Below, piece by piece: positions 3,848 through 40,138 of a stretch of DNA of 44,227 bases; the stretch's first letter is position 1; each line of letters opens with the position of its first letter. Source of the DNA: Bacteroidota bacterium (GTDB lineage: Bacteria; Bacteroidota; Bacteroidia; Flavobacteriales_D; Crocinitomicaceae); the NCBI GenBank assembly GCA_016866375.1, contig VGMK01000001.1, positions 1 to 44,227 of the forward strand. The letters run 5' to 3'. Position numbers and translations under genes: made by a program. Below the pieces are notes generated by a model. The model did not search any database. It saw nothing but the letters and a program-made list of their open reading frames with translations, and had not been told where the DNA came from.

Positions 3848-4036
3848 ATGAACAGGATCAAAGAAGTACTTCAGCAAAAAGGCATAAAGCAAACCTGGTT
3901 GGCTGAGAAGTTGGGCAAAAGCTTCAATATTGTTAATGATTATTGCAATAATCGGAGACAACCAAGTATTGAAACTTTATTCAAAATTTCAGAATTAATG
4001 AATGTTAATGTCAGAGAATTGCTAAATGAAAAATAA
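3848..4036 (+). CDS. XRE-family HTH protein, positioned like an R-M controller (C) protein
   Basis: MNRIKEVLQQKGIKQTWLAEKLGKSFNIVNDYCNNRRQPSIETLFKISELMNVNVRELL is a typical Cro/C1 HTH. It overlaps the methyltransferase start by 11 nt. The ORF-track start at 3764 is a non-ATG extension. Confidence 0.75.
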   Translation: MNRIKEVLQQKGIKQTWLAEKLGKSFNIVNDYCNNRRQPSIETLFKISELMNVNVRELLNEK

Positions 4037-13280: not shown

Positions 13281-15050
13281 ATGAGAACTAAAAACATTAA
13301 TCAGAACTTGCTTTCGTTGTTTGCTCGACATCCAAAATATTTGTTAAGGTTACTTTTCACTTATTATCCAATTTCTAATGAACAAATAGTAAAGTTCAAA
13401 GGCGAAGTGAAATGGGGGTATTTGTCTTCCAATACAGCAAGAAGTTGGGATCAATCCTTCATTGAAGAATACTCAGATCAGTTGAATTGGGACACATTGT
13501 CGGGAAATCCGTCATTGCCTTGGTCAATGTCTTTTCTAAAAGCATTCTCAGGAAGGTTTAAGGGCTCTATTCAAACTACGAATCCTTCATTGCCATGGTC
13601 ATATGAATTCATAACGAAATACGAGAAATTTTGGAATTTTTATTCACTTCCATTAAATGAGGGGATTCCATGGACACAAGAACTTATATTACATCCAAAA
13701 ATCATTGATAAAAATCTTTCAACTGTTAACGGTCAAAACCTTTGGACGGAAGAATTTTTGCTTCAAAATGCAGCAATATTACCTTGGCATTTTTTATGCG
13801 CGAATCCCTACATTTCATGGACAGAGAAATTGATTGATCAATTATCACCTTTTTGGAAAAAGGAAGAGAAAGAAAGCAATGAGTATTCTGTTTCGCCATG
13901 GAAAGGACTTTGCTCCAACCCTTCAGTTCCATGGACGACAAAATGGATTAAGAAATATCAAAAATCCTTTTTTAGACCCTTTGGCATTCATTGGAAAGAG
14001 TTAAGTAGAAATCCAAATTTGCCTTGGCAAGAGGAAAATCTGTTAGAGATTTATAAAAATAAATGGAATTGGGACCTGCTCTCTGTTAACGACGGCGTAG
14101 GTTTTACAGAAGAACAAATCGAAAAACACAAAGACCTTCTTACTTGGGATTCAGGTAGTGGAAGCAATCAAAATATCGCATCTAATACCAATCTACCATG
14201 GAGTGTCGAATTTATCAATAAGTACAAGCATAAATGGCATTGGTGGAGTTTATCTCGAAATCCTGGTGTCAATTGGACGGAAGAAATGATTTCCGAATTT
14301 GAAGAAAATATTATTTGGCAATCGATGGCAAACAACATCAATTTACCTTGGTCGTTGGATTTTATTTTGAAATACGAAAAAGAACTATTCAAAAGTTGGA
14401 CTTCGACGAACAGTGACTTTGATCAACATATTTGGGCAAAAGTATTTGAACCATTAATTACAGACGAAATAGCCGAACAGATACTATACAATTTATCTAA
14501 TCCATTTCAGGCCATCAAAAACTACAAGCCAGAATCAGATGATACAAATATTCCTCAAAAGAACCTTGAAATATTGACCCGTTTAATATTAAACATCAAC
14601 TCTCAAACGAACCCTTACATTTCGAATTTTTCCAAAATAGATTTGTTTCTATCGGCAATTCAAACAGCAATGTCACAAATTCTTGTTGCGGATGAAAATG
14701 AGTTGAAAATTGAACTTAAATTATTGACGCAATTATATCAAGAATCCGACGAGCCAACAAAAAAATACCTCAACAATTTATCCGCTGAGGTACACGAAGA
14801 GATACGTGTTCTTTTTGCTGGATATGGTATTGACAAAATTGCTCGAGAAGTTGTTTTGAAACAAAACGAAATGAACGAAACCTATATGGAATTTGCTCGT
14901 CAAGGTGGACATATTACACAAGATTTTTCTTTCCTACATTCATTCATTAGAAAGTATGGCAAAAGGCATTTAGAGTTAGCGAGGTTGTGGGTGCTTTTGG
15001 ATGCGTTGCTGCAAAAAAACACGAAATACGCTGTGAAGAGACAGCAATAG
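13281..15050 (+). CDS. Trp-rich tandem-repeat protein (about 12 units of 25-30 aa) with a non-repeat helical C-terminus
   Basis: Recurrent NP(S/N)LPW(S/T).EFI.KY...W.W..LS.N units between roughly aa 40 and 375. No family recognised. Confidence 0.7.
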   Translation: MRTKNINQNLLSLFARHPKYLLRLLFTYYPISNEQIVKFKGEVKWGYLSSNTARSWDQSFIEEYSDQLNWDTLSGNPSLPWSMSFLKAFSGRFKGSIQTTNPSLPWSYEFITKYEKFWNFYSLPLNEGIPWTQELILHPKIIDKNLSTVNGQNLWTEEFLLQNAAILPWHFLCANPYISWTEKLIDQLSPFWKKEEKESNEYSVSPWKGLCSNPSVPWTTKWIKKYQKSFFRPFGIHWKELSRNPNLPWQEENLLEIYKNKWNWDLLSVNDGVGFTEEQIEKHKDLLTWDSGSGSNQNIASNTNLPWSVEFINKYKHKWHWWSLSRNPGVNWTEEMISEFEENIIWQSMANNINLPWSLDFILKYEKELFKSWTSTNSDFDQHIWAKVFEPLITDEIAEQILYNLSNPFQAIKNYKPESDDTNIPQKNLEILTRLILNINSQTNPYISNFSKIDLFLSAIQTAMSQILVADENELKIELKLLTQLYQESDEPTKKYLNNLSAEVHEEIRVLFAGYGIDKIAREVVLKQNEMNETYMEFARQGGHITQDFSFLHSFIRKYGKRHLELARLWVLLDALLQKNTKYAVKRQQ

Positions 15051-25450: not shown

Positions 25451-25995
25451 TGAATCCTGTTTTCAAAACAATTTCAGAGTCGCAAACAGTACTAACTGAA
25501 TTGATGATTCCCAGTTATGCTAATTTCGGTGGTAAAATACATGGCGGTATTTTACTTTCACTTATGGATAAAGTAGCTTACGTTACCGCTTCCAAACACT
25601 ACGGAGGCTACTGTGTTACCGTCGCTGTGGAAGGTGTGGAATTCATGCATCCTGTTGAAGTTGGTCAACTGGTATCTTTGAAAGCGAGCATCAATTATGT
25701 GGGTAAGTCCTCTATGATTGTCGGTATTCGTGTGGAGGCCTTACAGCCTAAAACTGGCGAAGTTTTTCATACAAATAGTTCGTATTTTACCATGGTGGCA
25801 AAGAACGACGACCATCAAACTGATCGCGTACCCGGTTTAATTTTACAAACGGAAACAGAAATTCGACGTTTCTATGAAGGTATGCATCTTAAGCATATGG
25901 CAAAACAAAAACGAGAAATGCTCAAATCCGACTTTTCGTCTCTAACACTTGAAGATATCTGTGCTCACTTACTTGATGAAAATTGTAAGTTTTAA
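25450..25995 (+). CDS. Acyl-CoA thioesterase (hotdog fold, YciA-like)
   Basis: LMIPSYANFGGKIHGGILLSLMDKVAYVTASKH.GGYCVTVAVEGVEFMHPVEVGQLVSLKASINYVGKSSM is the typical acyl-CoA hydrolase core. Confidence 0.85.
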   Translation: MNPVFKTISESQTVLTELMIPSYANFGGKIHGGILLSLMDKVAYVTASKHYGGYCVTVAVEGVEFMHPVEVGQLVSLKASINYVGKSSMIVGIRVEALQPKTGEVFHTNSSYFTMVAKNDDHQTDRVPGLILQTETEIRRFYEGMHLKHMAKQKREMLKSDFSSLTLEDICAHLLDENCKF

Positions 25996-26333
25996 ACCTT
26001 ATTTTTTCTACCCTCCTCCTCTTCTTTCTTTATGGCATCTCCAAAAATTAGATTGTACAGGTATTGATACAAATAAATTTTAGCGCCCAAAGGCCAAATT
26101 CTATAAATTTCGAAGAAGGGCAATATGCTTAAAGTCACGGTAATAAATCCAAATGGAAAAATACCGAGTAGAACCAATGCAACCTGCGCACAAGAAAAGA
26201 GTAGCAACAATCCTAATCGTAAAAAAAAGTGTCGTTCGAGTTTTTTTAAAATTTTCTGAACTTCTTTCGCATCTTTCACTTCAACACGAGAAAAATCTAA
26301 CTCGATTGCTAATAATTGTTCTTTGATATTCAT
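25992..26333 (-). CDS. Small membrane protein
   Basis: 113-aa ORF with two hydrophobic helices. Convergent with the thioesterase gene. Confidence 0.45.
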   Translation of the reverse strand: MNIKEQLLAIELDFSRVEVKDAKEVQKILKKLERHFFLRLGLLLLFSCAQVALVLLGIFPFGFITVTLSILPFFEIYRIWPLGAKIYLYQYLYNLIFGDAIKKEEEEGRKNKV

Positions 26334-26344
26334 GTCTAAAAAAT

Positions 26345-26809
26345 TTAAAAGGTTACAGTGCCATTTGCCAAACGCTCTAAATAAAAAAGTTCGAAGGGGT
26401 GTAGGTTTTTACTTCCTTTTTCCAATATTCGATCTAAGATGACATCAAGATCCATAATGCGGTCAATGTAGCACAGCACCTCCTGTTTAAACGTGGGATT
26501 CAATTGACTCGAATCATTAATCAACACATGTGTTAAATCCGTAACCTTGTATTCAATAGCTTGTTTTTCCAATATTTTTTTTAACTCATTGAAAATTTCT
26601 TGATCGATTAGGTCAATTTCCGTATACCCTTTCTCATGGAACCAATGTAAGATGGGAACACTTTGATTGATCACATTTAGAAATACACCGTCTCGTTTGG
26701 TTAAGCCATCGAGTTTTTTCTCAAGCTCTTCTTCGTTGTACGGGTAATCAATTTTTAGCAATAAAAGTTCTGCACTATTTAGCGCATAAGGATACTGGTA
26801 ACATTTCAT
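26345..26809 (-). CDS. Hypothetical protein
   Basis: 154-aa ORF with no overlapping alternative. No motif recognised. Confidence 0.5.
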   Translation of the reverse strand: MKCYQYPYALNSAELLLLKIDYPYNEEELEKKLDGLTKRDGVFLNVINQSVPILHWFHEKGYTEIDLIDQEIFNELKKILEKQAIEYKVTDLTHVLINDSSQLNPTFKQEVLCYIDRIMDLDVILDRILEKGSKNLHPFELFYLERLANGTVTF

Positions 26810-26952
26810 GACAAGAGAGAATTAGTTTAACGAAAGCTCTAAACGCTGGATTTTCGAAAAAGTAACACGTCTGCTTGAGATTCATTTTATCTTGTTGAAT
26901 TTATTTACATACGTATGGGTATTTTTTATATATTTCCAAAATAAGCAATACC

Positions 26953-27411
26953 ATGCCCCACCTCGAACCCACATACCTCCGCTACATCTACGATGGCCTT
27001 ATCAAAGGAAGTATCCACCCGGAGAATGCTGCTGAATTACCTGATGGTTTGATTGGTATGTATGAAGAAGCCTTCGACGAGCGGACTTCGGTGGTGGAAC
27101 GCCAAAAACTGTTGCAACACTTTGCAATTTGGGCTTTGTTGAAGAAAGAGGTAAGTGCAGCTTTTGTATCCGAAGTTTTAGGAGAAACCGAAGACGACAT
27201 CCAAGAATTCATTTCCACCTACAGTGCCTGGTTCAACAGCCCAGAGAGCGGCAAATATCAATTGTACCACGAGCGATTGAAAGTGTATTTGTTGCAGAAG
27301 TTGAGTGAGGGGGAAGTTCATTCACTGCATGAGAAACTGATTACTCGTATAGAAAGAGCCATTGAAGAGCAAAAAGCGGATGAATTTGAGTGGTATGGGT
27401 TGGAGTTTTTA
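26953..27411 (+). repeat. Copy 1 of a dispersed direct repeat (shared 5' module of the three sensor genes)
   Basis: First 48 nt identical to copy 2. High nucleotide similarity through codon ~122 to both other copies, and through codon ~153 to copy 3. Confidence 0.85.
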
Positions 27412-30400
27412 ACTTCACATTTGGCAATTGCCGCTATGCTCAATGGTGATGGTAAGAAACTGATCAAACTTGCTTATTCCCAAACACATTGGCAACGCCA
27501 ATTGAAAATCAGCAAAGGGTATTCCTGGACAAAAAACAGCTTACAAGAAGTGATGGCCTGGGCTTCTAAATACAATGACGACGAGGTCATTGAATGTGGC
27601 TTGCAGATGGTTGATTTGCACCATCAGGAACAGAATGCAGCGCCTCAAATAGTGGCATTAGTAGCCGAGGGAGAATTTGACGCTGCACTCAAACGTATTG
27701 AGCAATTTGGAGGAAGTGACAAGGAGGGCTTGCAACGGAAGTTTATTTTATATATGCTATGCTTAATGGAGCTTACTTTACTTGGTAGTAAGGATAAACC
27801 AAACCGAAAAGTTGGAATTGACAAATTACTGAAGCATTTAGATGAGCAATTGCCGGTAGATTATTCTATTTTAAAATGGAATGATTTCTTTCCGAGTAAT
27901 ACCATGTTTTTATTGGCATGCGAATGGCATGCATTACGACTCGATTATTTAATTCCGTTCAAAAGAACCGATGCTTGGAATACAGACTGGCTTTCTGTAA
28001 AAGGGCCATATAACGATTCACAATTCGAGATTTTAATTGCCTGTGCAACAGGGATAAGTGATGATAATAGGAAGAGTAGCGCGCTAAAATTCATCAGTGC
28101 CGAACTGGCTAAACAAGGTAATATAGAAGAAGCCCTTGCCTGCGCAACAGGGATAAGTGAAGAGTCAGATAAGAGTAGCGCGCTAAAGGACATAAGTGCC
28201 GAACTGGCTAAACAAGGCAAGATAGAAGAAGCCCTTGCCTGCGCAACAGGGATAAGTTCTGATAGGGCAAAGAGTAGCGCGCTGGCGGCCATCTCCACCG
28301 AACTGGCTAAACAAGGCAAGATAGAAGAAGCGGCATCTGCGATGCAGAAAGCCCTTGCCTGCGCAACAGGGATAAGTGCTGATTGGGCAAAGAGTAGCGA
28401 GCTACAGGACATCAGTGCCGAACTGGCTAAACAGGGTAAGACCAAAGAAGCTGCATCTGTGATACAGGAGGCGCTTGAATGTGCCCGAGCCATTAGTGAT
28501 AATATACTTAAGAGTATGGCGCTAAAGGACATCAGTGCCGAACTGGCTAAACAAGGCAAGATAGATGAAGCCCTTGCCTGCGCAACAGGGATAAGTTCTG
28601 ATTGGGCAAAGAGTATGGCGCTAAAGGACATCAGTGCCGAACTGGCTAAACAGGGGAAGACTGAAGAAGCAGCATTTATGATGCAGGAAGCTCTTGAATG
28701 CGCCCGCGGCATTGATATTAACAATAGAGGTTTGATTAACAAGGTTAGAGCGCTAAAGGACATCAGTGCCGAACTGGCTAAACAAGGCAAGATAGATGAA
28801 GCCCTTGCCTGCGCAACAGGGATAAGTGATGAGTCAGATAAGAGTAGCGCGCTAAAGGATATCAGTGCCGAACTGGCTAAACAAGGCAAGATAGAAGAAG
28901 CGGCATCTGCGATGCAGAAAGCCCTTGCCTGCGCAACAGGGATAAGTTCTGATATGGAAAAGAGTAACGCGCTAAAGGACATCAGTGCCGAACTGGCTAA
29001 ACAAGGCAAGATAGATGAAGCCCTTGCCTGCGCAACAGGGATAAGTGATGAGTCAGATAAGAGTAGCGCGCTAAAGGACATCAGTGCCGAACTGGCTAAA
29101 CAAGGCAAGATAGAAGAAGTGGCATCTGCGATGCAGAAAGCCCTTGCCTGCGCAACAGGGATAAGTTCTGATATGGAAAAGAGTAACGCGCTAAAGGACA
29201 TCAGTGCCGAACTGGCTAAACAAGGTAAGATAGATGAAGCCCTTGCCTGCGCGATAGGGATAAGTGATGAGTCAGATAAGAGTATGGCGCTGAATGACAT
29301 CAGTGCCGAACTGGCTATACAAGGCAAGTTAGATGAAGCCCTTGCCTGCGCAACAGGGATAAGTTCTGATTGGGCAAAGAGTGACGCGCTAAAGGACATC
29401 AGTACCGAACTGGCTAAACAAGGCAAGATAGAAGAAGCCCTTGCCTGCGCAACAGGGATAAGTTCTGATAGGGCAAAGTGTAGCGCGCTGGCGGCCATCT
29501 CCACCGAACTGGCTAAACAAGGCAAGATAGAAGAAGCGGCATCTGCGATGCAGAAAGCCCTTGCCTGCGCAACAGGGATAAGTTCTGATAGGGCAAAGAG
29601 TGTGGCGCTGAACGACATCAGTGCCGAACTGGCTAAACAAGGCAAATTAGAAGAAGCCCTTGCCTGCGCAACAGGGATAAGTGGTGATAATCTGAAGAGT
29701 AGCGCGCTGAAGGACATCAGTGCCGAATTGGCTAAACAAGGCAAGATAGAAGAAGCCCTTGCCTGCGCAACAGGGATAAGTTCTGATAGGGCAAAGAGTA
29801 GCGCGCTAAAATTCATCACTGCCGAACTAGCTAAACAAGGTAAGATAGAAGAAGCGGCATCTGCGATGCAGAAAGCCCTTGCCTGCGCAACAGGGATAAG
29901 TTCTGATTGGGACAAGAGTGACGCGCTAAAGGACATCAGTGCCGAACTAGCTAAACAAGGCAAGATAGATGAAGCCCTTGCCTGCGCAGCAGGGATAAGT
30001 AATGATTATTGGAAGAGTAGCGCGCTAAAGGACATCAGTGCCGAACTGGCTAAACAAGGTAAGATAGATGAAGCCCTTGCCTGCGCGATAAGGATAAGTG
30101 ATGAGTCAGATAAGAGTATGGCGCTGAAAGACATCAGTGCCGAATTGGCTAAACAAGGCAAGTTAGAAGAAGCCCTTGCCTGCGCAACAGGGATAAGTTC
30201 TGATAGGGCAAAGAGTAGCGCGCTAAAATTCATCACTGCCGAACTTGCTAAACAGGGCAATTGGACGCTTGCAGAAACTACAGGCTTGGAGATTCCGTTA
30301 TCAAATATTAGACATCTTTGTTGGCAGAATATTGCAAACAATTTTATTAACGAAAACAGTTGGCAGAGGTCTTTGGAAATGGTAAATCAATTTCAAAATT

Positions 30401-30648
30401 TCGAGGCAAAGAATCACTACTTAAAAGGTTTTTCGGATTCAATACGTGCATACGAATGTTCAGAAAATCTATTTCTTTCGGTAAATAGATTTTATTTAAA
30501 TAACTTAGATTCATTAGAAACACTTTTACAAAAACATGCGTTGCATCAATTGTTTTTCCAAGATGCTTCGGCAGTAAAGTTAGAACGCTTTAACCGCACA
30601 CTGAATATCCAATGGGCGATAGACATCAAAAACCAATTACCAAACTAA
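26953..30648 (+). CDS. Sensor arm 1: STAND-type helical/winged-helix module plus about 21 tandem 33/40-aa helical (TPR-like) repeats
   Basis: N-terminus PTYLRYIYDGL...LPDGLIGMYEEAF...KLLQHFAIWALLKKEVSAAFVSEVLGETEDDIQEFIS..SAWFNSPESGKYQLYHERLKVYL fits the post-NTPase PLYL...winged-helix (Y.F.H..L..YL) pattern of NACHT/NWD-like STAND proteins. Then the repeat ACATGIS....KS.ALKDISAELAKQGK.EEAL. Confidence 0.8.
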   Translation: MPHLEPTYLRYIYDGLIKGSIHPENAAELPDGLIGMYEEAFDERTSVVERQKLLQHFAIWALLKKEVSAAFVSEVLGETEDDIQEFISTYSAWFNSPESGKYQLYHERLKVYLLQKLSEGEVHSLHEKLITRIERAIEEQKADEFEWYGLEFLTSHLAIAAMLNGDGKKLIKLAYSQTHWQRQLKISKGYSWTKNSLQEVMAWASKYNDDEVIECGLQMVDLHHQEQNAAPQIVALVAEGEFDAALKRIEQFGGSDKEGLQRKFILYMLCLMELTLLGSKDKPNRKVGIDKLLKHLDEQLPVDYSILKWNDFFPSNTMFLLACEWHALRLDYLIPFKRTDAWNTDWLSVKGPYNDSQFEILIACATGISDDNRKSSALKFISAELAKQGNIEEALACATGISEESDKSSALKDISAELAKQGKIEEALACATGISSDRAKSSALAAISTELAKQGKIEEAASAMQKALACATGISADWAKSSELQDISAELAKQGKTKEAASVIQEALECARAISDNILKSMALKDISAELAKQGKIDEALACATGISSDWAKSMALKDISAELAKQGKTEEAAFMMQEALECARGIDINNRGLINKVRALKDISAELAKQGKIDEALACATGISDESDKSSALKDISAELAKQGKIEEAASAMQKALACATGISSDMEKSNALKDISAELAKQGKIDEALACATGISDESDKSSALKDISAELAKQGKIEEVASAMQKALACATGISSDMEKSNALKDISAELAKQGKIDEALACAIGISDESDKSMALNDISAELAIQGKLDEALACATGISSDWAKSDALKDISTELAKQGKIEEALACATGISSDRAKCSALAAISTELAKQGKIEEAASAMQKALACATGISSDRAKSVALNDISAELAKQGKLEEALACATGISGDNLKSSALKDISAELAKQGKIEEALACATGISSDRAKSSALKFITAELAKQGKIEEAASAMQKALACATGISSDWDKSDALKDISAELAKQGKIDEALACAAGISNDYWKSSALKDISAELAKQGKIDEALACAIRISDESDKSMALKDISAELAKQGKLEEALACATGISSDRAKSSALKFITAELAKQGNWTLAETTGLEIPLSNIRHLCWQNIANNFINENSWQRSLEMVNQFQNFEAKNHYLKGFSDSIRAYECSENLFLSVNRFYLNNLDSLETLLQKHALHQLFFQDASAVKLERFNRTLNIQWAIDIKNQLPN
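28039..30260 (+). repeat. In-frame tandem repeat array, 99-bp and 120-bp units, about 21 copies
   Basis: gcctgcgcaacagggataagt...gccgaactggctaaacaaggcaagatagaagaagccctt recurs head to tail. It leaves long stop-free antisense ORFs. Confidence 0.95.
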
Positions 30649-31013
30649 TGCCCCACCTCGAACCCACATACCTCCGCTACATCTACGATGGCCTTGTAAA
30701 AGGAAGCATCCATCCGGAGAATGCCGCAGAATTACCAGACGGCCTCATTGGCATGTACGAAGAAGCCTTCGATGAGCGCACTTCCGTGGTGGAACGCCAA
30801 AAACTGTTGCAACGCTTTGCCATTTGGGCACTTTTAAAGAAAGAAGTGAGTGCAGCATTTGTATCCGAAGTTTTAGGCCAAACTGAAGACGACATCCAAG
30901 AATTCATTTCCTCCTACAGCGCCTGGTTCAACAGCCCAGAAAGTGGCAAATACCAGTTGTATCACGAGCGCTTGAAGGTGTATTTGTTGCAGAAGATGAG
31001 TGAGGGGGAGGTT
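30648..31013 (+). repeat. Copy 2 of the dispersed direct repeat
   Basis: See copy 1. Similarity ends abruptly after the gagggggaggtt segment. Confidence 0.85.
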
Positions 31014-33146
31014 GCTGAATTAAATTCTAAAATTGTTGAATTTCTTCTGCATAAAGTAAATGATGCGCAGGAAAATGAATCGGTTCTTTACTGTTTTGAA
31101 AATCTATCATTTCACTTATTTTTAAATGGATATCTAACGGGGGAAAGTGCACTTTTGGCTCAATTTTGTCTTGATGATAATTTTAAAAAACGACAATTTG
31201 AACTATCTGGTTATTATGACTGGGAAGAAAAAATGATGGTTTTAGGAGTGGAATACTTTTCCCTCAAACAAGATTCGATTTGTCATCAAATAGTATTTGA
31301 GAAAACAAAAATACAATTTAAGAAAAAGAATATTGATCTTATAATTTCTTTACTTAAGCGAGATAAATTTGAATTATTATTTTCATTATTTAAATCATTA
31401 TATGAAAAAGAACTTGAGCAAAGGATAGCAACCGCTTATTTGTATCATTTAACTTTTTTTGAAATTTTTGAATTGGAAAACAAAAGTTTTATACTGAAAA
31501 AAGAAATTGCAAATCAACTTTTAGAAACTTTCGAAGAATATTTCATTTGGGATAGAGGTTATTATTTGGCACAGTTTATTGATGTAAATATATTATTTCG
31601 CTTACACTGCTATTTTGTGCAATTTGGTTTAGATTTTAAAAAAATCGCTATTCTTTCATCTGATCAGAATACAGAATATTATGGTTTGGACATTAGGTAC
31701 GAAGATTTAAAGTTTATTGATCCAAAGCATAAGGAAGAAGCAATTACCATTCTACAACTTTTTAAAATATTCGATTACGGTATTAGTTATGTTGAGAAGT
31801 CGAAAATTGTAGATTTAGTTGATGAATTAACTAATAATCCGATTAACAATAAACATTATGCTTTTAGAAGTCATCTGCAGAAAAAGCTTCAAATTATTGG
31901 TAAAACAAAATTGCTAAAACAAAACGATTTGATCGAAATTGTTGAAAATGAAGTTCATTCGTTCAAAGAATTGATTTTGAGTATAAAATTTATTTTAGGA
32001 ATTAATGAGTTAACACATCATTTGAAAAGAGAGGCAAGCTTGCTTTTCCAAAAGACTTTATTAGAACAAGCTAATGGTAAATTGGAGTTTTCAGGTTACT
32101 GGCATAGAAATGATTTAAAAATAATTAAATTAGATAATAAAATAAGCTCAAATCAAACTCAAATATTGGATTTATTGACTGTTGAGTCGTTCGGTTCAAT
32201 GGACCCAAAATCTAGATTCGACGCGTTGAATAAAGTTGTTTTTAGCGAAGAATTAGAGGTTGAAATACTCCTTGCTTTTTTAGATTTATCACTCTTTTTT
32301 GATGGTAATGAGAACAAAGATATTCTAGATCTTTTTTCATCGTTATTTGTGGAATTTATTTTGGACACAGATGAAGAAAAGATAATGCTATACACGTCAA
32401 AATTGTTTGACTCATTAGCAAATATGGAACACCATTCTGAGGAGTTTGAAGATAAAATATTTGATATAACAATCAATTTTTTTAAGAGTAATGATTTCAA
32501 TGGATATTCCAAAAGCACCTTGGTAAATTATCAAGAGAGTATTCTTAACCTATATTTCGACTTCAATTTCTATAATTATTCTTTCAAACAAGGTATTGCA
32601 TTAATTAATTTGTTTAATCAGCATCAAATTGATTTTCCAGAAGAAGAAATCATAGAAAGAATTCTTGAAGATCTTGATGCTATGATTGAAGAGAATGATT
32701 ACAATGAAATGTGGGTTATTGAAAACTCAAAAATTGACCGAGTTTATTCAAAATCCTATTTCTCGGATTTTTACGATTGTGTAAAAAGAATCCAAATAGA
32801 ACAGGTAAGAAATAATTTGAGTGAATATATTTTTGAGTCGATTATTGAACTGAAAGGCCTTAATTACAACACCATTTCCTTTTTTAGAGAAAATGCAAAT
32901 GAATACCGAGGAATGTATTTATGGGCCAAAAAACGCTTAAGTCAGAAATTATTTGAAAAAAATGAAGAGTTATCCTATGTTGTGTTAAAAGACAACAACG
33001 ATTTATTATTGGAGCGCTTACTTCTGAATATCGTCTCCAAAAGAGAAAATTTGAAGGAAGAAATTAAAATTGAAACTCTCAAACATTATGGCTTGGATTG
33101 GGTAATTGAATTGGATAATGAGTATGAAAAATTAATTGCCAACTAA
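30648..33146 (+). CDS. Sensor arm 2: same N-terminal STAND helical/WH module plus an unrelated AT-rich helical C-terminal region
   Basis: Start set at MPHLEPTYL (the ATG overlaps the upstream TAA as TAATG). 5 substitutions relative to gene 1 in the first 122 aa, then complete divergence after SEGEV. Confidence 0.8.
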   Translation: MPHLEPTYLRYIYDGLVKGSIHPENAAELPDGLIGMYEEAFDERTSVVERQKLLQRFAIWALLKKEVSAAFVSEVLGQTEDDIQEFISSYSAWFNSPESGKYQLYHERLKVYLLQKMSEGEVAELNSKIVEFLLHKVNDAQENESVLYCFENLSFHLFLNGYLTGESALLAQFCLDDNFKKRQFELSGYYDWEEKMMVLGVEYFSLKQDSICHQIVFEKTKIQFKKKNIDLIISLLKRDKFELLFSLFKSLYEKELEQRIATAYLYHLTFFEIFELENKSFILKKEIANQLLETFEEYFIWDRGYYLAQFIDVNILFRLHCYFVQFGLDFKKIAILSSDQNTEYYGLDIRYEDLKFIDPKHKEEAITILQLFKIFDYGISYVEKSKIVDLVDELTNNPINNKHYAFRSHLQKKLQIIGKTKLLKQNDLIEIVENEVHSFKELILSIKFILGINELTHHLKREASLLFQKTLLEQANGKLEFSGYWHRNDLKIIKLDNKISSNQTQILDLLTVESFGSMDPKSRFDALNKVVFSEELEVEILLAFLDLSLFFDGNENKDILDLFSSLFVEFILDTDEEKIMLYTSKLFDSLANMEHHSEEFEDKIFDITINFFKSNDFNGYSKSTLVNYQESILNLYFDFNFYNYSFKQGIALINLFNQHQIDFPEEEIIERILEDLDAMIEENDYNEMWVIENSKIDRVYSKSYFSDFYDCVKRIQIEQVRNNLSEYIFESIIELKGLNYNTISFFRENANEYRGMYLWAKKRLSQKLFEKNEELSYVVLKDNNDLLLERLLLNIVSKRENLKEEIKIETLKHYGLDWVIELDNEYEKLIAN

Positions 33147-33148
33147 CC

Positions 33149-33607
33149 ATGCCCCACCTCGAACCTACCTACCTCCGTTACATATACGATGGCCTTATCA
33201 AAGGAAGCATCCATCCGGAGAATGCCGCCGAATTACCAGATGGCCTCATTGGCATGTACGAAGAGGCCTTCGATGAGCGCACTTCAGTAGTAGAACGCCA
33301 AAAACTGTTAAAACGCTTTGCCATTTGGGCATTATTGAAGAAAGAAGTGAGCGCTGCATTTGTTGCGGAAATATTGGGAGAAACAGAAGATAACATCCAA
33401 GAATTCATTTCCACCTACAGCGCCTGGTTCAATAGCCCAGAAAGTGGCAAGTACCAGTTGTACCACGAGCGCTTAAAAGTGTATTTGTTGCAGAAGTTGA
33501 GTGAGGGGGAGGTTCATGCGCTTCACGAAAAACTCATTGGAAGATTAGAAAAGGCCATAAAGGAACAAAAAGCAGATGAATTTGAGTGGTATGGGTTGGA
33601 GTTTTTG
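33149..33607 (+). repeat. Copy 3 of the dispersed direct repeat
   Basis: See copy 1. Confidence 0.85.
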
Positions 33608-35458
33608 GGATATCATTATTCAATTGAAAGTAAATCAACAAAAGACTCAAAAATTGCCAAAGATTTTTTTAACCTGTTTTATGATTTCCAATCATCAAAG
33701 AAGATTCTCAAAAGGCAACAAGAGCTTTCCAATTCTTATAAGTGGTCAAAAGAAAACCTTCATCTTTTGAGTGAACTAGGGATCATTTTTAATTCATATA
33801 AAATATTTAATATTTCAGATATAGCTTGTGAAATTCATAAAGAAGAGTATGATATTATTGAAAAATTAGAAAAACTCTTGATTGATGGGAATAATAACCA
33901 TGCAATTGATTTAGTTTCTGAGCTTCATGCAGATGAGTTAGAATTAATAGAAATAAAGATTTATCATTTATTATTTGTACTATTTTCAATTGAGGATGAA
34001 AATAGTATTAAAAACGTTGTTCTTATTCTTGAAGATTTATTGTCTAAAAATGCTGGTGAGCTGTTCGATTTAGAAGAAGATATACTTCGAAATATCGGAG
34101 AACCGTCAAGTCTAATTTTTTCAATTTGTACGAAAATAGAATGTTTTGGGTTTTCTTCAGAATTTATAATTCAAAGTTGTAATGACTGGGAATCGAGGGG
34201 ATTCTTGTCAGATTCCAAAAATAATTTAATTGATTATAGAAGCATTATTGATGTAATAAAGTCAGTAATAATTCAAAGAAATAGTGACTTTTATTCTATC
34301 AATATTGAATTCGAAAAGCCAGAAAAGTTCATCGATAACTACTTAAAGACATTAGAATTATTGGAGTCTGTAGAAAATTTCAATGACGAGGCGGAGGTAT
34401 TTCATTATTTTATTTCAAATAAAGGAGCGTTTAATTTAACGAATGTATACGCATTAGTAAAATGTTTTCAATCCTTCAAATCTCAAAATGTAAAGGATAT
34501 TTTGGTAGATAAGTTTTGGGAAATTTTAATTCTAGATTTAGATGTTATTGATTACATTTTCGATTTATCAAATAACGTTACCTTAAATAGACTGGCATAT
34601 ACTAAGTCTGAGGTTTTATCTGAAATTTCCTCAATTAGTCAATCCCCGAAAATATTGGATTCTTGCAGAGCAATAATTGAAATAAGAAATCAAAAAGATT
34701 ATCTAGAAAAATTAGACATTTCTTTTTGTAGCAGATTTGATTCATCATTTGAATTCAAATTTCATTGTTTACAAGCAGTACTAAATCCCGAACAAAAAAA
34801 AGTCTGTTTAAATTTAAAGTATCTTTATTTTAAAGAATTATTCGAATCGAATATTGAAACAGATATTTTAAATTATAATATTGACATTTTAGAAGAGTTC
34901 GTGGCCTTTTGCACCTTTTGCAAACAAAAATATAGTGAACTTATAGATGAGCTTGTTACTTGTTTTGTTAACAATCTTGGGCACTATGAGAAGTGGCAGT
35001 TTGATGAAAATTTATTTTTTTTAATCGACGAAATGAACAAAAAGAGTCTATCTATTGAGGCTTACAAAATCTTGGATATGATGAAAACACCACTGATTCA
35101 AAAAGTGACACTAATGAAGTCATTTGCGAATTGGGCGTTCTTTAATAATCATTCACTGTCATTTAAAAGTGAAGAACTTGCTTTCATTAGAAATGAACAT
35201 CGACAATATGTTATTCTAGGTTGGTTAAAAGATGGTTACGGTTCAGTATCATTTGATTTAAACGTTGGTAATGAATTGCCTTACGTTCCAAATTCGCTTA
35301 TTAATCAAAGTTTATATCTGGAAAATCAAATATTTATAATTGATAGACCAGATATACTTAAATTATTTTCCTTGAAACTAATTGAGGAAGAAAATAATAC
35401 TGAAAAGATGAAATCATTTTTCCCCTTTATTTACAGTACTTTAGAAAACTCCAATTAA
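33149..35458 (+). CDS. Sensor arm 3: same N-terminal module plus a third, unrelated AT-rich C-terminal region
   Basis: ATG 2 nt after the upstream stop. 5 substitutions relative to gene 1 in the first 122 aa. Shares the extension VH.LHEKLI.R.E.AI.EQKADEFEWYGLEFL with gene 1 only. Confidence 0.8.
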   Translation: MPHLEPTYLRYIYDGLIKGSIHPENAAELPDGLIGMYEEAFDERTSVVERQKLLKRFAIWALLKKEVSAAFVAEILGETEDNIQEFISTYSAWFNSPESGKYQLYHERLKVYLLQKLSEGEVHALHEKLIGRLEKAIKEQKADEFEWYGLEFLGYHYSIESKSTKDSKIAKDFFNLFYDFQSSKKILKRQQELSNSYKWSKENLHLLSELGIIFNSYKIFNISDIACEIHKEEYDIIEKLEKLLIDGNNNHAIDLVSELHADELELIEIKIYHLLFVLFSIEDENSIKNVVLILEDLLSKNAGELFDLEEDILRNIGEPSSLIFSICTKIECFGFSSEFIIQSCNDWESRGFLSDSKNNLIDYRSIIDVIKSVIIQRNSDFYSINIEFEKPEKFIDNYLKTLELLESVENFNDEAEVFHYFISNKGAFNLTNVYALVKCFQSFKSQNVKDILVDKFWEILILDLDVIDYIFDLSNNVTLNRLAYTKSEVLSEISSISQSPKILDSCRAIIEIRNQKDYLEKLDISFCSRFDSSFEFKFHCLQAVLNPEQKKVCLNLKYLYFKELFESNIETDILNYNIDILEEFVAFCTFCKQKYSELIDELVTCFVNNLGHYEKWQFDENLFFLIDEMNKKSLSIEAYKILDMMKTPLIQKVTLMKSFANWAFFNNHSLSFKSEELAFIRNEHRQYVILGWLKDGYGSVSFDLNVGNELPYVPNSLINQSLYLENQIFIIDRPDILKLFSLKLIEEENNTEKMKSFFPFIYSTLENSN

Positions 35459-35463
35459 ATAAT

Positions 35464-36054
35464 ATGCGAACAATTAAACACAAATTTTATGAAAACCCAC
35501 TTCCGTCATGGGAGTGCAAGACCCTAATTCTAGGTACATTCAATCCAGAAATTGGTTCTGATGCTGATTACTATTATGGACGAATTCGACCAACAGGCGG
35601 TTGGAGCAATCGATTTTGGCCAGCAGTTAATTCTTATCTCGAAGTCAATTGTCTGGAAATTCCGCTCGCTGGAAAAGGTGATTTAAATTCAAAAGTCAGA
35701 ATAATGTCTAAGTTCAAATTTGGATGTGTAGATATTATTTCTCGAATTGAATGCAGGAATGAGGAGTATATTACAGGGAACGGCTTCGCAGATGCAGCAA
35801 TTTTTCATCCACATAACAAAGTTTATTTTAATACTGAGTTGATTATTGATTTTATCAATTCTAACGGAGTAAAGAAGGTCATTTCTAGTTTCGGCAGAGG
35901 AACTTCACTGAATCAAAGTGCTTTAGCTGAAATAGATAGCATTAAAATTGCATGTACAAAAGTTGATTTTCACTTATTTGATTTACCTGCCTTCGGAAGA
36001 CCAATGAAATCGACCGAGCAGTTTGGAAAGGAATTGTTTAAATTTATTTTATGA
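35464..36054 (+). CDS. Uracil-DNA glycosylase superfamily protein (deoxyinosine/MUG-like pattern)
   Basis: CKTLILGTFNPEIGSDADYYYGRIRPTGGWSNRFWPAV resembles the LILGSFPS...YY.h..N.FW N-terminal motif of UDG-superfamily glycosylases. ATGA overlap with the next gene. Confidence 0.45.
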   Translation: MRTIKHKFYENPLPSWECKTLILGTFNPEIGSDADYYYGRIRPTGGWSNRFWPAVNSYLEVNCLEIPLAGKGDLNSKVRIMSKFKFGCVDIISRIECRNEEYITGNGFADAAIFHPHNKVYFNTELIIDFINSNGVKKVISSFGRGTSLNQSALAEIDSIKIACTKVDFHLFDLPAFGRPMKSTEQFGKELFKFIL

Positions 36055-37583
36055 CCCTCACAACCCCACCCAACCTCCCACCACGCCTCCTGCATAGAAT
36101 CGAGGCGGTTCAGAAAGAAGATGACGCATACGCTGCGGATGAACTCGTTGAATTAGGTGAAGAAATTCTGTCCCAATTGGCTGCGTTGGGAATTGCTGTT
36201 TATTTGCAACAAGGGAAGCAGAAAGAAGTGTTTAACGACTTTTTGATTTCGTTGTTTTTGTCGAATGGGCATGCCTATAATGCAGGACCGCTGTATCGCT
36301 GGGCGGCAAATATGATCAAAGAAGCAGAAAGCACAGATGCAGAATTATTGAAGCCCTTTTTCTGGCAAGAGAAGGACGGAAAAAAAGTGTTGAACGAGGC
36401 CATTCATCATTTGGCGAGTTTGCGCAATGCGGTGATGCACGGTTTTTTTGTTTTGCCTCCTGAAAGAAATAGAGAAGAGACGCAAAAGATGACAGCGATT
36501 TTGGAGCAAATGAACAAAGCTGGTTTGTTTGAAAAGCAATTTGGAACGTTTCATTTTGTGGATTCGAATGGATTCAATGGGCATTGGAATATAATTGATT
36601 CCAAAGCGTGGACAAATTTCTCCGAATGTTTTTCCTTTGGGGAATTAGCTCAGCGGGTTTCACATGAATACTCAGAGAATTTCCGATTAGAAGAACGAGC
36701 ATTTGCCACGGAGAAAACAACTTCACACGCAGATGTCCAACAAGCTACCTATGAATTGCTCGAAAAAGGCAAAGGGGCATTGGTGTGTTGGTACAGTCCG
36801 GGTTCCAAAGGTGGAAAAGAAGCTTATCGTTCAATGGTTCAGTCGGTATCCAACGAAACTTATCTGCCTATTTACTATGCCTTGCATGAGCGTGGAGCCA
36901 CTTTTACCACCGCATTTTTTACTAAGGAACTCGGAAATGCGCTCTTTGAGCTTACACAGAAAGAAAATGCGCGAAAAGAACCGATCAAATTTCTTAAAAA
37001 CAGAGACAACTCCAAATTTGTAACGAAGAAACCTGTATTGATTTTGCATGATATTCACGTAGCTTTATTCAACGACAATCACTTGACATTGTTTTTTAAT
37101 GAACTATTTGATGCAGGTATACCCGTCTTATGCACCGCATGGCCGTATCCTTACCTTCGCAGATTTTTCAACCAAGAAGTATATGTGGATGAACAACCGA
37201 AACAAATTACAATTGAAATTATCGAATACTCGTTGAACAATTACTTGCGCTTCAAAGGGCCGAGCAAAGAACAAAACGACCAAGTTGCGGAATACCAAAA
37301 AGTAAAGGATATCGTGTTTGCAATACATCAACAATTGGAAAACGGTGAATCCTTAGTTGCACGACGCTTTGCAGATCAATACACTTACCCGATTGAATTT
37401 GTGCACGAGGCTTTCAGTATTTTGAGTCCCTTCTACAGGCTTGATAAAGAAAAATTTAAAGAGGATGAGGTGGATGAGTTGTATGGATTCCCAAAAACCA
37501 TCGAAGAAAGTTCACGAATTTTCTTAACTTTAGGTCGACGTGATGTGAAACTGGAATATCAGCATAGAGTGTTGTCGAAATAA
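36051..37583 (+). CDS. HEPN-like (RNxxxH) N-terminal domain plus a degenerate P-loop NTPase-like domain
   Basis: LASLRNAVMHG (R125-H130, nt 36423-36440) fits the Rx4H HEPN motif. WYSPGSKGGKEAY is a degenerate Walker A. PVLILHDIHV is Walker-B-like. Same layout as the 38084 gene. Confidence 0.5.
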   Translation: MTLTTPPNLPPRLLHRIEAVQKEDDAYAADELVELGEEILSQLAALGIAVYLQQGKQKEVFNDFLISLFLSNGHAYNAGPLYRWAANMIKEAESTDAELLKPFFWQEKDGKKVLNEAIHHLASLRNAVMHGFFVLPPERNREETQKMTAILEQMNKAGLFEKQFGTFHFVDSNGFNGHWNIIDSKAWTNFSECFSFGELAQRVSHEYSENFRLEERAFATEKTTSHADVQQATYELLEKGKGALVCWYSPGSKGGKEAYRSMVQSVSNETYLPIYYALHERGATFTTAFFTKELGNALFELTQKENARKEPIKFLKNRDNSKFVTKKPVLILHDIHVALFNDNHLTLFFNELFDAGIPVLCTAWPYPYLRRFFNQEVYVDEQPKQITIEIIEYSLNNYLRFKGPSKEQNDQVAEYQKVKDIVFAIHQQLENGESLVARRFADQYTYPIEFVHEAFSILSPFYRLDKEKFKEDEVDELYGFPKTIEESSRIFLTLGRRDVKLEYQHRVLSK

Positions 37584-37597
37584 TAATAATTTAAAAA

Positions 37598-38053
37598 ATG
37601 GATTTAAAACTAAAATTTGGTGAAAACTATATTCTACTTGCTGGATTAAGGCAGTTTATTGAGCACGGAGTAATACTTTCCTCGGTTAATTTTTGGAGAG
37701 ATAGCTTTCAGAATTTTCAGGAGTTAAGAGCAGTTGATAAACGTTCAGAAATACTGAAAACGAATAATGCTTTTTATGAAGATGAGTTTCTCGTTTCCTT
37801 TGTCAATGAAGAATTTCCGGTATTTGAAGATCAAATTCCGGATGACGTAATCCCAACAGTTTTGAAATTAATTGAGCACGAGGAAGGACCCAAAACCGCA
37901 AGTTTGACCAAAGAATTTCTATTGCAATACGCAGTTTTTATTGCGAAATCTTCAAAGGAAGATTATTTAGCATTTGTAGGAATCAAGGATTCGATAAGTG
38001 ATGAAGAGCAAGTATTTATAGAGAAAATAAAACATTTGTTCGATGAACATTAA
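37598..38053 (+). CDS. Small acidic hypothetical protein
   Basis: 151-aa ORF in the operon. No motif recognised. Confidence 0.5.
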   Translation: MDLKLKFGENYILLAGLRQFIEHGVILSSVNFWRDSFQNFQELRAVDKRSEILKTNNAFYEDEFLVSFVNEEFPVFEDQIPDDVIPTVLKLIEHEEGPKTASLTKEFLLQYAVFIAKSSKEDYLAFVGIKDSISDEEQVFIEKIKHLFDEH

Positions 38054-38083: not shown

Positions 38084-39571
38084 ATGAACCCAATCCAACA
38101 CTACCATAAACGCTACGAAGAAATAAAGCTAGAGAAAAAGGTTTCTTCAGATATTGACGTGTTAGCAGACCTCATTGAGAACGATAACGCTGGCTTGAAT
38201 AATTTCTTCATGGCTGCTTTTGGAATGAGCACCTTGATCTTACGCATGGGAGCGGTCATACAAATGTGCCGAAAATTTGAACTTTTGGATGAATACGGAG
38301 ATGCTCTTTTTACAAAACAAGTGTTGGATAACCTCCGCGAAACCTTGCCCTCCGATACCAGTTGGAAGAATGTTTGGAATATCAGTGCTGTGGATGATGC
38401 TTGGAAAAGTCCAACGCTTCAAGCAAAAGGCGGTCAGTCGCTCTTAGATCGGTTTGTGACATTTAGAAATAAGTTCGTACATCAAACTATTCAGTTGACT
38501 CAAAATAGTCTGCCGCAGTTAAGCAACGGAGTAACAATGTTTGAGGAACTTACAAACCTCATTTCGCTTTTTGAAAATGGGAATTTAGAACTAATCGAGG
38601 GAAAATACCATTGGGTAGAAAATAATAAATCCATATGTATGTATCCTTATGTTCAAGTTGGAATGGAAAAAGATCATCCCTACATTTTTCAGGGTTTGCA
38701 TAAGTCAAAAGAAAAAGTTGCCATTCTCAACTTAATCGCAGGAAATGAGGAAGCGCAAGAGGCTCAGATATTAGAACAAGTTTTTGAACCGATGCGCTCT
38801 TCCTTACAAGGTGGCGCCGGACAAGTATTCGATCACAGCGAACGCATTGCCTATTACCAATCTTGTTTTGTTGGTCGTGATCGAGAGAAAAATGCCATTC
38901 TAGATTTCTGTGCGCATAATGACAATCAGAACATACTCTGTGTAAAGTCTCCAGCAGGAATGGGCAAAGGAGCGTTAATTGCCGACGTGATTCAACAATT
39001 AAAAGAGAATAAAACGCAAGTGCTCTATCATTTTTGTGGTGCCGGAATGCAAAACAGTCTTCATGCTGCATTGTACCATTTTATTTTGCAGGGCACAAGA
39101 ACAGCTTACTGGGATCGCTCAGATGAAACCATTGACCGTAAATTGAATCGTTTGCCATCAAAACTTATCGATGTAATCCATTTGTTTCAGTCCTTGTTGA
39201 GTGAACACTTGAATATCCAAAAAAACAACACCACAGGAAATTTAGTCATCATCATTGACGGCCTCGACGAAGCCCAAGTTGCCTATTCACAACTCAAAAT
39301 ATCGGATTGGTTTTATTCCTACAACGAAAAAGAAGAACCGGAAGAAGATTGGCGAAGCGCATCAAACATCCGCTGGGTTTTTACCTATCGTTGCGATGAC
39401 GATGGAAAAGAATCCTTTTATCAATTTCCCAAGATGAAAGAATGTGTTCACATCGACATGCTACAGCCCCTTCAAGGACTTTCCCCAGCAGCAGTTGATG
39501 AAGCATTTAAGGATTTCAAGGTGTCTGATGATTTTAAGAAAACAGTGATTGAGAAGGCGGAGATAGTATAA
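38084..39571 (+). CDS. HEPN-like (RNxxxH) N-terminal domain plus a STAND-type P-loop NTPase core lacking the winged-helix and sensor regions
   Basis: FVTFRNKFVHQ (R128-H133, nt 38465-38482). FVGRDREKNAILDF...ILCVKSPAGMGKGALIADV is Walker A with Gly in the usual Ser/Thr position. NLVIIIDGLDEA is Walker B. RWVFTYR is a sensor-1-like strand. LQPLQGLSPAAVDEAF follows, and the protein ends at ...TVIEKAEIV. Confidence 0.7.
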   Translation: MNPIQHYHKRYEEIKLEKKVSSDIDVLADLIENDNAGLNNFFMAAFGMSTLILRMGAVIQMCRKFELLDEYGDALFTKQVLDNLRETLPSDTSWKNVWNISAVDDAWKSPTLQAKGGQSLLDRFVTFRNKFVHQTIQLTQNSLPQLSNGVTMFEELTNLISLFENGNLELIEGKYHWVENNKSICMYPYVQVGMEKDHPYIFQGLHKSKEKVAILNLIAGNEEAQEAQILEQVFEPMRSSLQGGAGQVFDHSERIAYYQSCFVGRDREKNAILDFCAHNDNQNILCVKSPAGMGKGALIADVIQQLKENKTQVLYHFCGAGMQNSLHAALYHFILQGTRTAYWDRSDETIDRKLNRLPSKLIDVIHLFQSLLSEHLNIQKNNTTGNLVIIIDGLDEAQVAYSQLKISDWFYSYNEKEEPEEDWRSASNIRWVFTYRCDDDGKESFYQFPKMKECVHIDMLQPLQGLSPAAVDEAFKDFKVSDDFKKTVIEKAEIV

Positions 39572-39589
39572 TTAAACTAATTTTACACC

Positions 39590-40138
39590 ATGAAAATTAT
39601 TAAAAAATTTGATCAATATATTAACTTGTCCAGTTTTCAAACGATTGAATTCTCAGACGGCATGTTAATTTTTACAGCTGAATTCTATGGTTCATATGAA
39701 ATACCTCAACAAGATATTTTATCATCAAACCCCTCTTTATCATTAGGAAAAGAACTATCGTTGATTATAAAAAAATCTCATTTTAACGAATTAAAAAATC
39801 AATTTGATAAATTTCTTTTAAGTGAAGAATGTCTCTTTGACATCTCAAAATATATTGAAGTAATCAATTTAGAAGAGGTAAACACTGACTTTTTAGATAC
39901 AAGCTCACTCGACCCTATGTTCGTAGATATAGCCAGAATTGTTGTTATTAATCAAGAAGCTTCAGCCAGTATGCTTCAACGGAAATTAAGTCTCGGATAC
40001 AATAGAGCAGGTCGAGTCGTTGACCAATTAGAAGAGGCGAATATTATTGGCCCTTTTGAAGGAAGTACTCCTAGAAAAATACACTTTCAAGATATTGAAG
40101 ATTTAGATTCGCATTTAAGGTCATTAGGTCTGATTTAA
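39590..40138 (+). CDS. Stand-alone FtsK-gamma (winged-helix) domain protein
   Basis: C-terminus DPMFVDIARIVVINQEASASMLQRKLSLGYNRAGRVVDQLEEANIIGPFEGSTPRKI matches the FtsK/SpoIIIE gamma domain (S.S.LQR...IGYNRA.R..D.LE..GI.GP..GS..R). Confidence 0.8.
   Translation: MKIIKKFDQYINLSSFQTIEFSDGMLIFTAEFYGSYEIPQQDILSSNPSLSLGKELSLIIKKSHFNELKNQFDKFLLSEECLFDISKYIEVINLEEVNTDFLDTSSLDPMFVDIARIVVINQEASASMLQRKLSLGYNRAGRVVDQLEEANIIGPFEGSTPRKIHFQDIEDLDSHLRSLGLI

Follow-up and report, generated by a model that had tools for sequence, protein, structure and literature searches.

Why should three neighbouring genes of one bacterial locus begin with almost the same protein and then part company within a few codons? 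The question is raised by a stretch of 44,227 nucleotides (nt) from a Bacteroidota bacterium of the Crocinitomicaceae (GenBank assembly GCA_016866375.1, contig VGMK01000001.1, positions 1 to 44,227; hereafter, the window), in which three tandem genes, here called sensor genes 1 to 3, share a 5' module (the head) and continue into dissimilar C-terminal parts (the arms). Our answer, to which we give a probability of about two in three, is that the heads are the shared docking half of a split STAND NTPase and are held alike by selection, and that the points where their likeness ends have acted as crossover points. The NTPase half proper would be the product of g495, a gene farther down the same row. 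The heads are laid out as follows:

26953-27411, + strand: head copy 1; a core of nt 1-366 (amino acids, aa, 1-122) and an extension to nt 459 (aa 153) in common with copy 3.
30648-31013, + strand: head copy 2; the core alone, the likeness stopping after SEGEV.
33149-33607, + strand: head copy 3; core and extension.

A repeat search finds them as one direct family of three copies at 26950, 30645 and 33146, with 88% and 85% identity to copy 1 over 300 nt. The original prediction had described three similar 5' modules and placed all of them correctly: the copies run in register from the ATG codons at 26953, 30648 and 33149. When the genes are aligned without gaps on these codons, identity upstream is at the level of chance (3-11 of 30 nt), rises to 21-30 of 30 nt over the first 360 nt of the genes, and then ends as had been read by eye, with copy 2 falling to chance past nt 366 (...SEGEV) and copies 1 and 3 staying alike until nt 459 (...EFEWYGLEFL) before they too fall. 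Over the 366 nt of the core, nucleotide identity is 0.893 between copies 1 and 2, 0.863 between 1 and 3, and 0.899 between 2 and 3; the corresponding amino-acid identities are 117/122, 117/122 and 114/122, so that copies 2 and 3 do each differ from copy 1 at five residues, and the extension adds 26 identical residues of 31 between copies 1 and 3. Copies 1 and 2 do agree throughout their initial 48 nt, as had been claimed, and first differ at nt 49. Heads 1 and 3 have in common an identical stretch of 32 nt (27347-27378 and 33543-33574) to which we return below.

We see no sign that the repeat acts at the level of DNA or RNA: the likeness begins at the ATG, Rfam has no match in it, RNAalifold finds essentially no covariation among the heads (covariation term -0.37), and no stretch of the head has unusually low synonymous variability (P>=0.29). 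The three repeats are the coding sequence of one conserved N-terminal domain carried by three tandem, abutting paralogs.

By the pattern of their substitutions, the heads are kept alike mainly by purifying selection on this protein domain. Their synonymous sites differ at a third to over half of positions and their replacement sites almost nowhere; synonymous divergence (dS, Nei-Gojobori) is 0.64 for copies 1 and 2, 1.17 for copies 1 and 3, and 0.52 for copies 2 and 3, nonsynonymous divergence (dN) is 0.02-0.03, and dN/dS is 0.018-0.060. High dS together with near-zero dN argues for selection on the protein and against recent homogenisation, one of the two explanations that the original prediction had offered, which we discard because dS is too high. 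The uncorrected proportion of differing synonymous sites (pS) within the window, 0.38-0.60, resembles that among heads of other genomes, 0.34-0.69, and a GENECONV-style permutation test on the longest shared tract is not significant (p 0.05, 0.88 and 0.25).

What the domain may be is suggested by its family and its predicted fold. A HMMER/phmmer search for the head among 1.84 billion representative sequences yielded 465 protein clusters at 50% identity, of which the best 150 were listed. The head is N-terminal in all 150, beginning at residue 1-8 in 149 of them and at residue 32 in one 145-aa fragment; the proteins are 115-1679 aa long, and heads may be up to 93% identical between proteins that otherwise belong to different 50% clusters. 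Conservation over 145 family members stands at 0.8-0.95 to about residue 120, at 0.63-0.74 to residue 153 and at about 0.5 thereafter. The arms, 175 in number, fall into 33 clusters, the largest of which (108/175) is the tetratricopeptide-repeat (TPR) type of gene 1; it includes the arms that adjoin the nucleotide-binding domain (NBD) gene in distant loci, and is both the predominant arm type of the family and the ancestral one. A scan of GTDB genomes added 24 related loci (L001-L024), nearly all in metagenome-assembled genomes (MAGs) of freshwater Bacteroidota, Crocinitomicaceae, Fluviicola and Flavobacteriales among them.

An AlphaFold2 (AF2) model of the head, built on copy 3 (predicted local distance difference test score, pLDDT, 78), consists of two low-confidence helices, a winged helix and two long helices. 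Foldseek superposes it on Apaf-1 (query-normalised TM-score, TMq, 0.52; root-mean-square deviation, rmsd, 3.4), CED-4 (TMq 0.54) and Avs3 (TMq 0.46), with probabilities of 0.97-0.99. A histidine, His106 in YQLYHERL, is invariant among head homologues and is a candidate for the histidine of the winged-helix domain (WHD). Fold, gene order and co-occurrence taken together, the head is most likely the half of a split NACHT-like STAND NTPase that holds the WHD and part of helical domain 1 (HD1), and would bind the other half.

The candidate for that other half stands in the same row of eight plus-strand genes, mostly abutting, between 26953 and 40138; the first three of these open reading frames (ORFs) share their 5' end:

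26953-30648, + strand, 1231 aa: sensor gene 1; head, helical region and about 20 TPR-like tandem repeats of 33/40 aa (repeat family D1).
30648-33146, + strand, 832 aa: sensor gene 2; head and an AT-rich arm with no recognised domain.
33149-35458, + strand, 769 aa: sensor gene 3; head and an AT-rich arm with no recognised domain.
35464-36054, + strand, 196 aa: g196, accessory gene; ATGA overlap with g510, no family match.
36051-37583, + strand, 510 aa: g510; invariant HEPN-type R-N-x-x-x-H motif, degenerate P-loop-like middle, conserved C-terminal domain.
37598-38053, + strand, 151 aa: g151, putative accessory gene; no family match.
38084-39571, + strand, 495 aa: g495; HEPN-type motif FRNKFVH and NACHT-like P-loop domain.
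39590-40138, + strand, 182 aa: stand-alone FtsK-gamma winged-helix protein (Pfam FtsK_gamma, 7.6e-23).

Homologues of g510 and g495 occur in all related loci of sufficient length, and in the most distant ones (L021-L024, whose heads are 44-54% identical) g510 comes first, then g495 and then the head gene, the ATG of the head lying 4 nt past the g495 stop or overlapping it as ATGA. In Pfam, g495 matches NPHP3_N (8.9e-13; 49.2 bits, cut-off 24.8) and AAA_16 (2.2e-08; 35.2 bits, cut-off 32.6), and the NACHT and nSTAND1 models score below their cut-offs; PDB sequence profiles return nothing meaningful for it. Its HEPN-type motif R-N-K-[FY]-V-H is invariant among homologues. One of these, P0276, is labelled by JGI as YutE (UPF0331/DUF86 family), and as DUF86 is a HEPN family, this outside annotation is a hint that the g495 N-terminus is HEPN-like. 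The Walker B motif of g495 reads IIIDGLDEA, with D392, L394, D395 and A397 invariant in 14 homologues, and its DGLDE fits the signature D[GAS]hDE given for NACHT domains (Kibby et al., preprint).

What g495 does not contain bears directly on the proposal. Its AF2 model includes no winged helix, ending two helices past the sensor-1 strand, and its Foldseek matches are AAA+ ATPases, including the STAND members NRC4, Dark and CED-4, and also ORC; HD1 and the winged helix, which in the STAND family share a chain with the NBD, do not follow it on the same chain here. Almost all of the 120 g495 homologues listed are 494-505 aa long, a few shorter ones (306-470 aa) being on short contigs and none being longer. 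No fused protein of g495 and sensor appears among the 120 listed matches of a concatenated probe, each of which covers the head only, and no unsplit relative appears in the 150, 120 and 120 listed matches of the head, concatenated and g495 searches. Because g495 length is uniform and no fused form is found, the split is a fixed trait of the family and not a broken gene.

The other gene present in all these loci, g510, combines an HEPN-motif N-terminus and a C-terminal domain that are near-invariant family-wide with a centre that is hypervariable between genomes. In the comparison of the window with L001, this gene is itself a mosaic, its first ~250 nt and last ~140 nt having a pS of 0.2-0.4 and its centre (36300-37440) being a fully diverged allele with a pS of 0.8-1.0 and a proportion of differing nonsynonymous sites (pN) of 0.3-0.45.

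If the heads form a common module, one would like to know whether arms have moved independently of them. Arm 3 has an ortholog in L001 (82% amino-acid identity) and arm 2 has one in L007 (83%). Between the window and L001, pS is 0.57 for the head, 0.29 for arm 3 and 0.21 for g196, and then 0.71 for g510, 0.51 for g151 and 0.60 for g495; in sliding windows it is 0.50-0.71 across 33149-33598 and 0.19-0.35 from about 33600. Among codons with identical residues in the two genomes, 45/137 differ in the head as against 82/496 in the arm (Fisher p=5.8e-5). Maximum chi-squared (max-chi2) puts the single best breakpoint at 33581, next to the 32 nt that head 3 has in common with head 1, and the block of low divergence covers arm 3, g196 and the first ~250 nt of g510, where the hypervariable centre of that gene begins. 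Gene 2 repeats the pattern against L007, with a pS of 0.49 in the head and 0.32 in the arm (p=0.0013), the core of the arm being near identical (pS 0-0.1) and its 3' end saturated. A higher synonymous divergence cannot come from purifying selection, so that the head and the arm must have had different histories, and on this measure the head/arm junction is a real recombination breakpoint. The suggestion that the module was joined to arms of different origin is borne out to this extent, and it agrees with approximately unbiased (AU) tests on the head tree, in which grouping by arm type is rejected in 3/6 cases (p 0.045, 0.021 and 0.009) and grouping by genome in none. The data fit both a transfer of arms between lineages, with crossovers in the conserved flanks, and an overwriting of heads from paralogs. 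Compared with L003-L006, the background genes of the window (thioesterase, g495) are saturated (pS 0.76-0.82), and its heads and the g510 N-terminus have a pS of 0.34-0.69 and 0.42-0.66; these conserved segments would be either codon-constrained or exchanged between lineages.

The mechanism that we propose on these grounds is as follows. On the two models, HD1 would take its first two helices from g495 and its last two from the head, which would also bring the WHD that includes His106. Every sensor could then dock via the common head onto the same g495 NTPase half, and the variable arms (TPR in gene 1; unrelated, AT-rich and helical in genes 2 and 3) may bind different triggers; binding of a trigger would lead to oligomerisation, which would switch on the HEPN effector. 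The heads would be near-constant because all of them must fit one partner, and the ends of their similarity would be domain boundaries that double as crossover points. Each arm is flanked by conserved segments, its own head on one side and, on the other, either the following head or the 5' end of g510, which is likewise conserved, so that arms, alone or with flanking genes, could be replaced or exchanged between lineages independently of heads. Homologous recombination after horizontal transfer is the probable route. A more specific version, on which we are evenly divided, is that of a naturally split NLR, in which a P-loop/HEPN half and a WHD-sensor half complete a four-helix HD1 with two helices each, one NTPase serves interchangeable sensors, and the head doubles as portable homology for arm cassettes.

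Turnover of whole arms, which the original prediction had derived from the direct repeats, is visible between genomes and not within the population. Tandem head-bearing genes occur in at least 14 independent loci, mostly head to tail, with a stop 0-3 nt before the next ATG or overlapping it and few longer gaps; in the window, the ATG of gene 2 overlaps the stop of gene 1 (TAATG), and this start, at 30648, agrees with that of the JGI gene callers (832 aa). One arm is found in L017 and L019, two in L003, L005, L014, L016, L018 and L022, and three in the window, L004 and L010. In L001, a different arm type (P0008-like) stands upstream of the arm-3 ortholog. Seven contigs carry an identical arm 3; the two displayed share their context, four of the five others are reported to lie in similar places, and no variation in arm number is seen among these near-identical strains.

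Several observations accompany this. L006 has a head remnant of 29 codons at 9112-9198, which reads MPHLEPTYLRYIYDGLLKGSVHPENTAEL before it passes into unrelated sequence and a stop; the intact head of this locus lies some 800 nt farther downstream. In L017, a g510 remnant of 26 codons (14171-14248) precedes the intact gene by 2.6 kb. Both remnants have the look of scars left by earlier deletions or rearrangements. The arm-2 ortholog in L007 is preceded, with a TAATG overlap between the two genes, by a non-sensor gene (2-694, at least 230 aa) that is absent from the window and may be another accessory or effector of the system. In one lake metagenome run (X12), a contig of 1215 nt at about 6x depth leaves head 1 at 27378 and continues directly into arm 3 at 33575, so that 6196 nt are missing. 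This junction falls inside the 32 nt common to heads 1 and 3, a length just over the assembler's word size, and is absent from the other seven runs; the contig is either a genuine recombinant or a chimera of the assembly.

The heads are also more G+C-rich than arms 2 and 3, as had been noted. Their GC content is 0.46-0.49 (0.54-0.58 at third codon positions, GC3), compared with 0.278 (GC3 0.25) for the remainder of gene 2, 0.275 (GC3 0.23) for that of gene 3 and 0.348 for the whole window. Across the 24 loci, heads range over 0.37-0.49 and most arms over 0.20-0.33, with some up to 0.43; most copies have heads about 0.10 above and arms 0.05-0.08 below local GC, and head GC3 scales with the GC of the locus. 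Since it recurs at most copies, the contrast is a property of the family and not a peculiarity of the window, and a foreign origin of the head was rejected as its cause. Stronger constraint on the head, codon choice included, set against fast-evolving or recently acquired AT-rich arms is the more likely explanation; GC-biased repair at a recombination-prone segment is a possible one.

A number of points weigh against the proposal as a whole. The head has no sequence-level match in Pfam (E up to 10), NCBIfam, PADLOC or PDB profiles; its Foldseek E-values are weak (0.03-0.1), and regulators of the MarR/IclR type score similarly. The Walker A motif of g495 is non-canonical, A-G-M-G-K-G-A with a glycine after the lysine, and invariant as such in 14 homologues; the canonical GxxxxGK[ST] is absent, and g510 is still more degenerate. 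The order of genes in the window differs from that in the distant loci, the sensors being upstream of the NTPase genes and three other genes standing between them and g495. Pfam scans of arms 2 and 3 recognise no repeat or ligand-binding fold, so that the solenoid or repeat sensor of STAND systems is seen in one arm type alone, that of gene 1 (TPR_2 5.7e-22, TPR_12 5.5e-17). The uniformity of the identical-arm-3 contigs gives no sign of arms being gained or lost among close strains, and the discordance between head and arm can also be explained by conversion of heads from paralogs. Binding of head and g495 is deduced from fold, gene order and co-occurrence, and an anti-phage role from domain content and neighbourhood (a restriction-modification system and a serine recombinase).

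That last ambiguity opens the way to the strongest alternative, concerted evolution, in which gene conversion keeps overwriting the heads and constraint on the protein is secondary. There is evidence of exchange: sites at which copy 2 agrees with copy 1, and those at which it agrees with copy 3, fall into separate blocks of about 20-60 nt (27 runs as against 37.3 expected, P=0.003), and because the odd-one sites alternate in this way, copy 2 can be described as a mosaic of copy-1-like and copy-3-like stretches. The 48 identical nt at the start of copies 1 and 2, the heads that are more diverged than the orthologous arms they sit on, the by-genome grouping that no AU test rejected, and the heads of L016 and those of L018, which pair within their genome at 100% support in spite of unrelated arms, would all follow from it. 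What makes it unlikely is the depth of divergence: dS between the copies is near that between heads of different genomes, the longest-tract tests are not significant, heads of the window clade form no resolved groups by genome (and those of L020 and L022 group by position), and nonsynonymous sites are 15-50x more conserved than synonymous ones, equally so between genomes, for which conversion alone is insufficient. The conversion invoked by the original prediction thus survives as old short-tract exchange or mosaicism among heads, indicated by weak traces in their site patterns, and fails as recent homogenisation. An artefact, with three copies arising from a collapsed or chimeric metagenome assembly of strain alleles, is hardly credible. 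The short-read contigs of eight lake metagenome runs are fragmented and do break at the heads, and many related MAG contigs end at or near one; against this, JGI contigs from two samples (L025 and L026) independently give the order gene 1 (partial), gene 2, gene 3, g196, the stretch is complete at even depth in at least seven separate runs, and both the recurrence of tandem head genes and the similar placing of most identical-arm-3 contigs speak for a real arrangement.

A quite different view of the head, as a domain for trafficking, anchoring or some other constant function unrelated to an NTPase, would turn the locus into an array akin to polymorphic toxins or tail fibres. It draws on the pairing of a constant N-terminus with variable C-terminal parts across a sharp recombination junction, on the want of a recognisable sequence family and on the weak E-values of the STAND matches. 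We consider it improbable, more so than concerted evolution, as the head co-occurs strictly with g510 and g495 and its gene, in distant loci, directly adjoins the NBD gene or overlaps it, the domains that the head would supply are just those missing from g495, and no signal peptide or secretion family was detected. The arms are helical or TPR proteins of 600-1100 aa, typical of sensors, the genes abut by 0-2 nt with no small ORFs between them, and toxin/immunity pairs and orphan cassettes are absent.

The remaining genes and the setting of the window add context to the docking-half interpretation. Neither g196 nor g151 has a family match in Pfam, NCBIfam or PADLOC; among related loci, g151 is present solely in the window and L001. 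The FtsK-gamma gene, which closes the row, is kept 3' of g495 only in L006 among related loci, and its membership in the system is uncertain. Promoter and terminator consensus counts in the row are not above those of shuffled sequence, no plus-strand terminator is found at any gene junction of the row, and no RNA runs contain the locus. Antisense to the 33/40-aa repeats of gene 1, an open frame of 672 aa (27945-29963, - strand) mirrors their period and in all likelihood results from the repetition and is not a gene; metagenome word depth over these repeats is raised up to 10-fold, as expected for repeated words. Upstream, between a conserved thioesterase gene and head 1, are two small ORFs of 113 and 154 aa (25992-26809, - strand) without family matches and without a counterpart between thioesterase and first head in L003, L005, L006 and L018. 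Farther away, the window holds a large serine recombinase with Resolvase and Recombinase domains (92-1702, - strand) and a C-5 cytosine methylase with a DpnII/BanI-like restriction enzyme (4026-6256, + strand). This recombinase, 25 kb off, is the only one in the window, and none adjoins the array; the array lies in a defence-island-like, possibly mobile region.

If the docking-half interpretation is true, NLR-type switches can be built from separate NBD and WHD-sensor subunits, and bacteria can multiply specificities by adding sensor genes and not whole receptors. The system would then give an experimental handle on WHD gating of an NTPase and on sensor exchange, as well as a template for the design of plug-in sensors, and the locus would be a clear case of a conserved domain boundary used as a crossover point for the exchange of immune specificity between lineages.

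Three groups of known systems invite comparison. Polymorphic toxins, including contact-dependent inhibition (CDI) and Rhs proteins, tail fibres and hsdS genes have, like this array, a conserved N-terminal module, a sharp junction and many unrelated C-terminal parts, and they too come in tandem arrays in which conserved segments flank the variable parts and permit exchange. Here, however, every copy is a complete ORF with its own ATG and full head, there are no immunity genes, promoterless orphan cassettes or dedicated recombinase or invertase nearby, and the variable part is a putative intracellular sensor and not a toxin or receptor binder; the length of the arms and the tight spacing of the genes described above likewise depart from toxin arrays. 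The NAIP-NLRC4 inflammasome and the sensor-helper (NRC) NLR networks of plants resemble it in that several sensors of different specificity feed one executor. There, every sensor and every executor is a complete NLR that has a nucleotide-binding and oligomerisation domain (NOD) of its own, whereas the sensors here have no P-loop and would complete the NOD of the executor in trans, and homology is limited to the STAND fold.

The closest likeness is to the Avs and bNACHT proteins, single-chain STAND NTPases of anti-phage defence. Both they and this system have an N-terminal effector motif of nuclease type, a NACHT-like P-loop domain in which Walker B fits D[GAS]hDE, a winged helix (in this system a probable one), a long sensor of repeats or helices at the C-terminus, and a setting in defence islands. 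PADLOC has no model above noise for the system, and full-text searches of the literature found split STAND proteins mentioned only in passing, in the methods of a 2026 preprint. The differences from Avs and bNACHT are that the NOD is split inside HD1 into two polypeptides, that one NBD gene serves 1-3 alternative WHD-sensor genes, that a second, degenerate HEPN-NTPase paralog is always present, and that Walker A is non-canonical. Judged from its sequence, then, the system would be an Avs/bNACHT-like STAND receptor whose NBD, HD1 and WHD are no longer contiguous on one chain.

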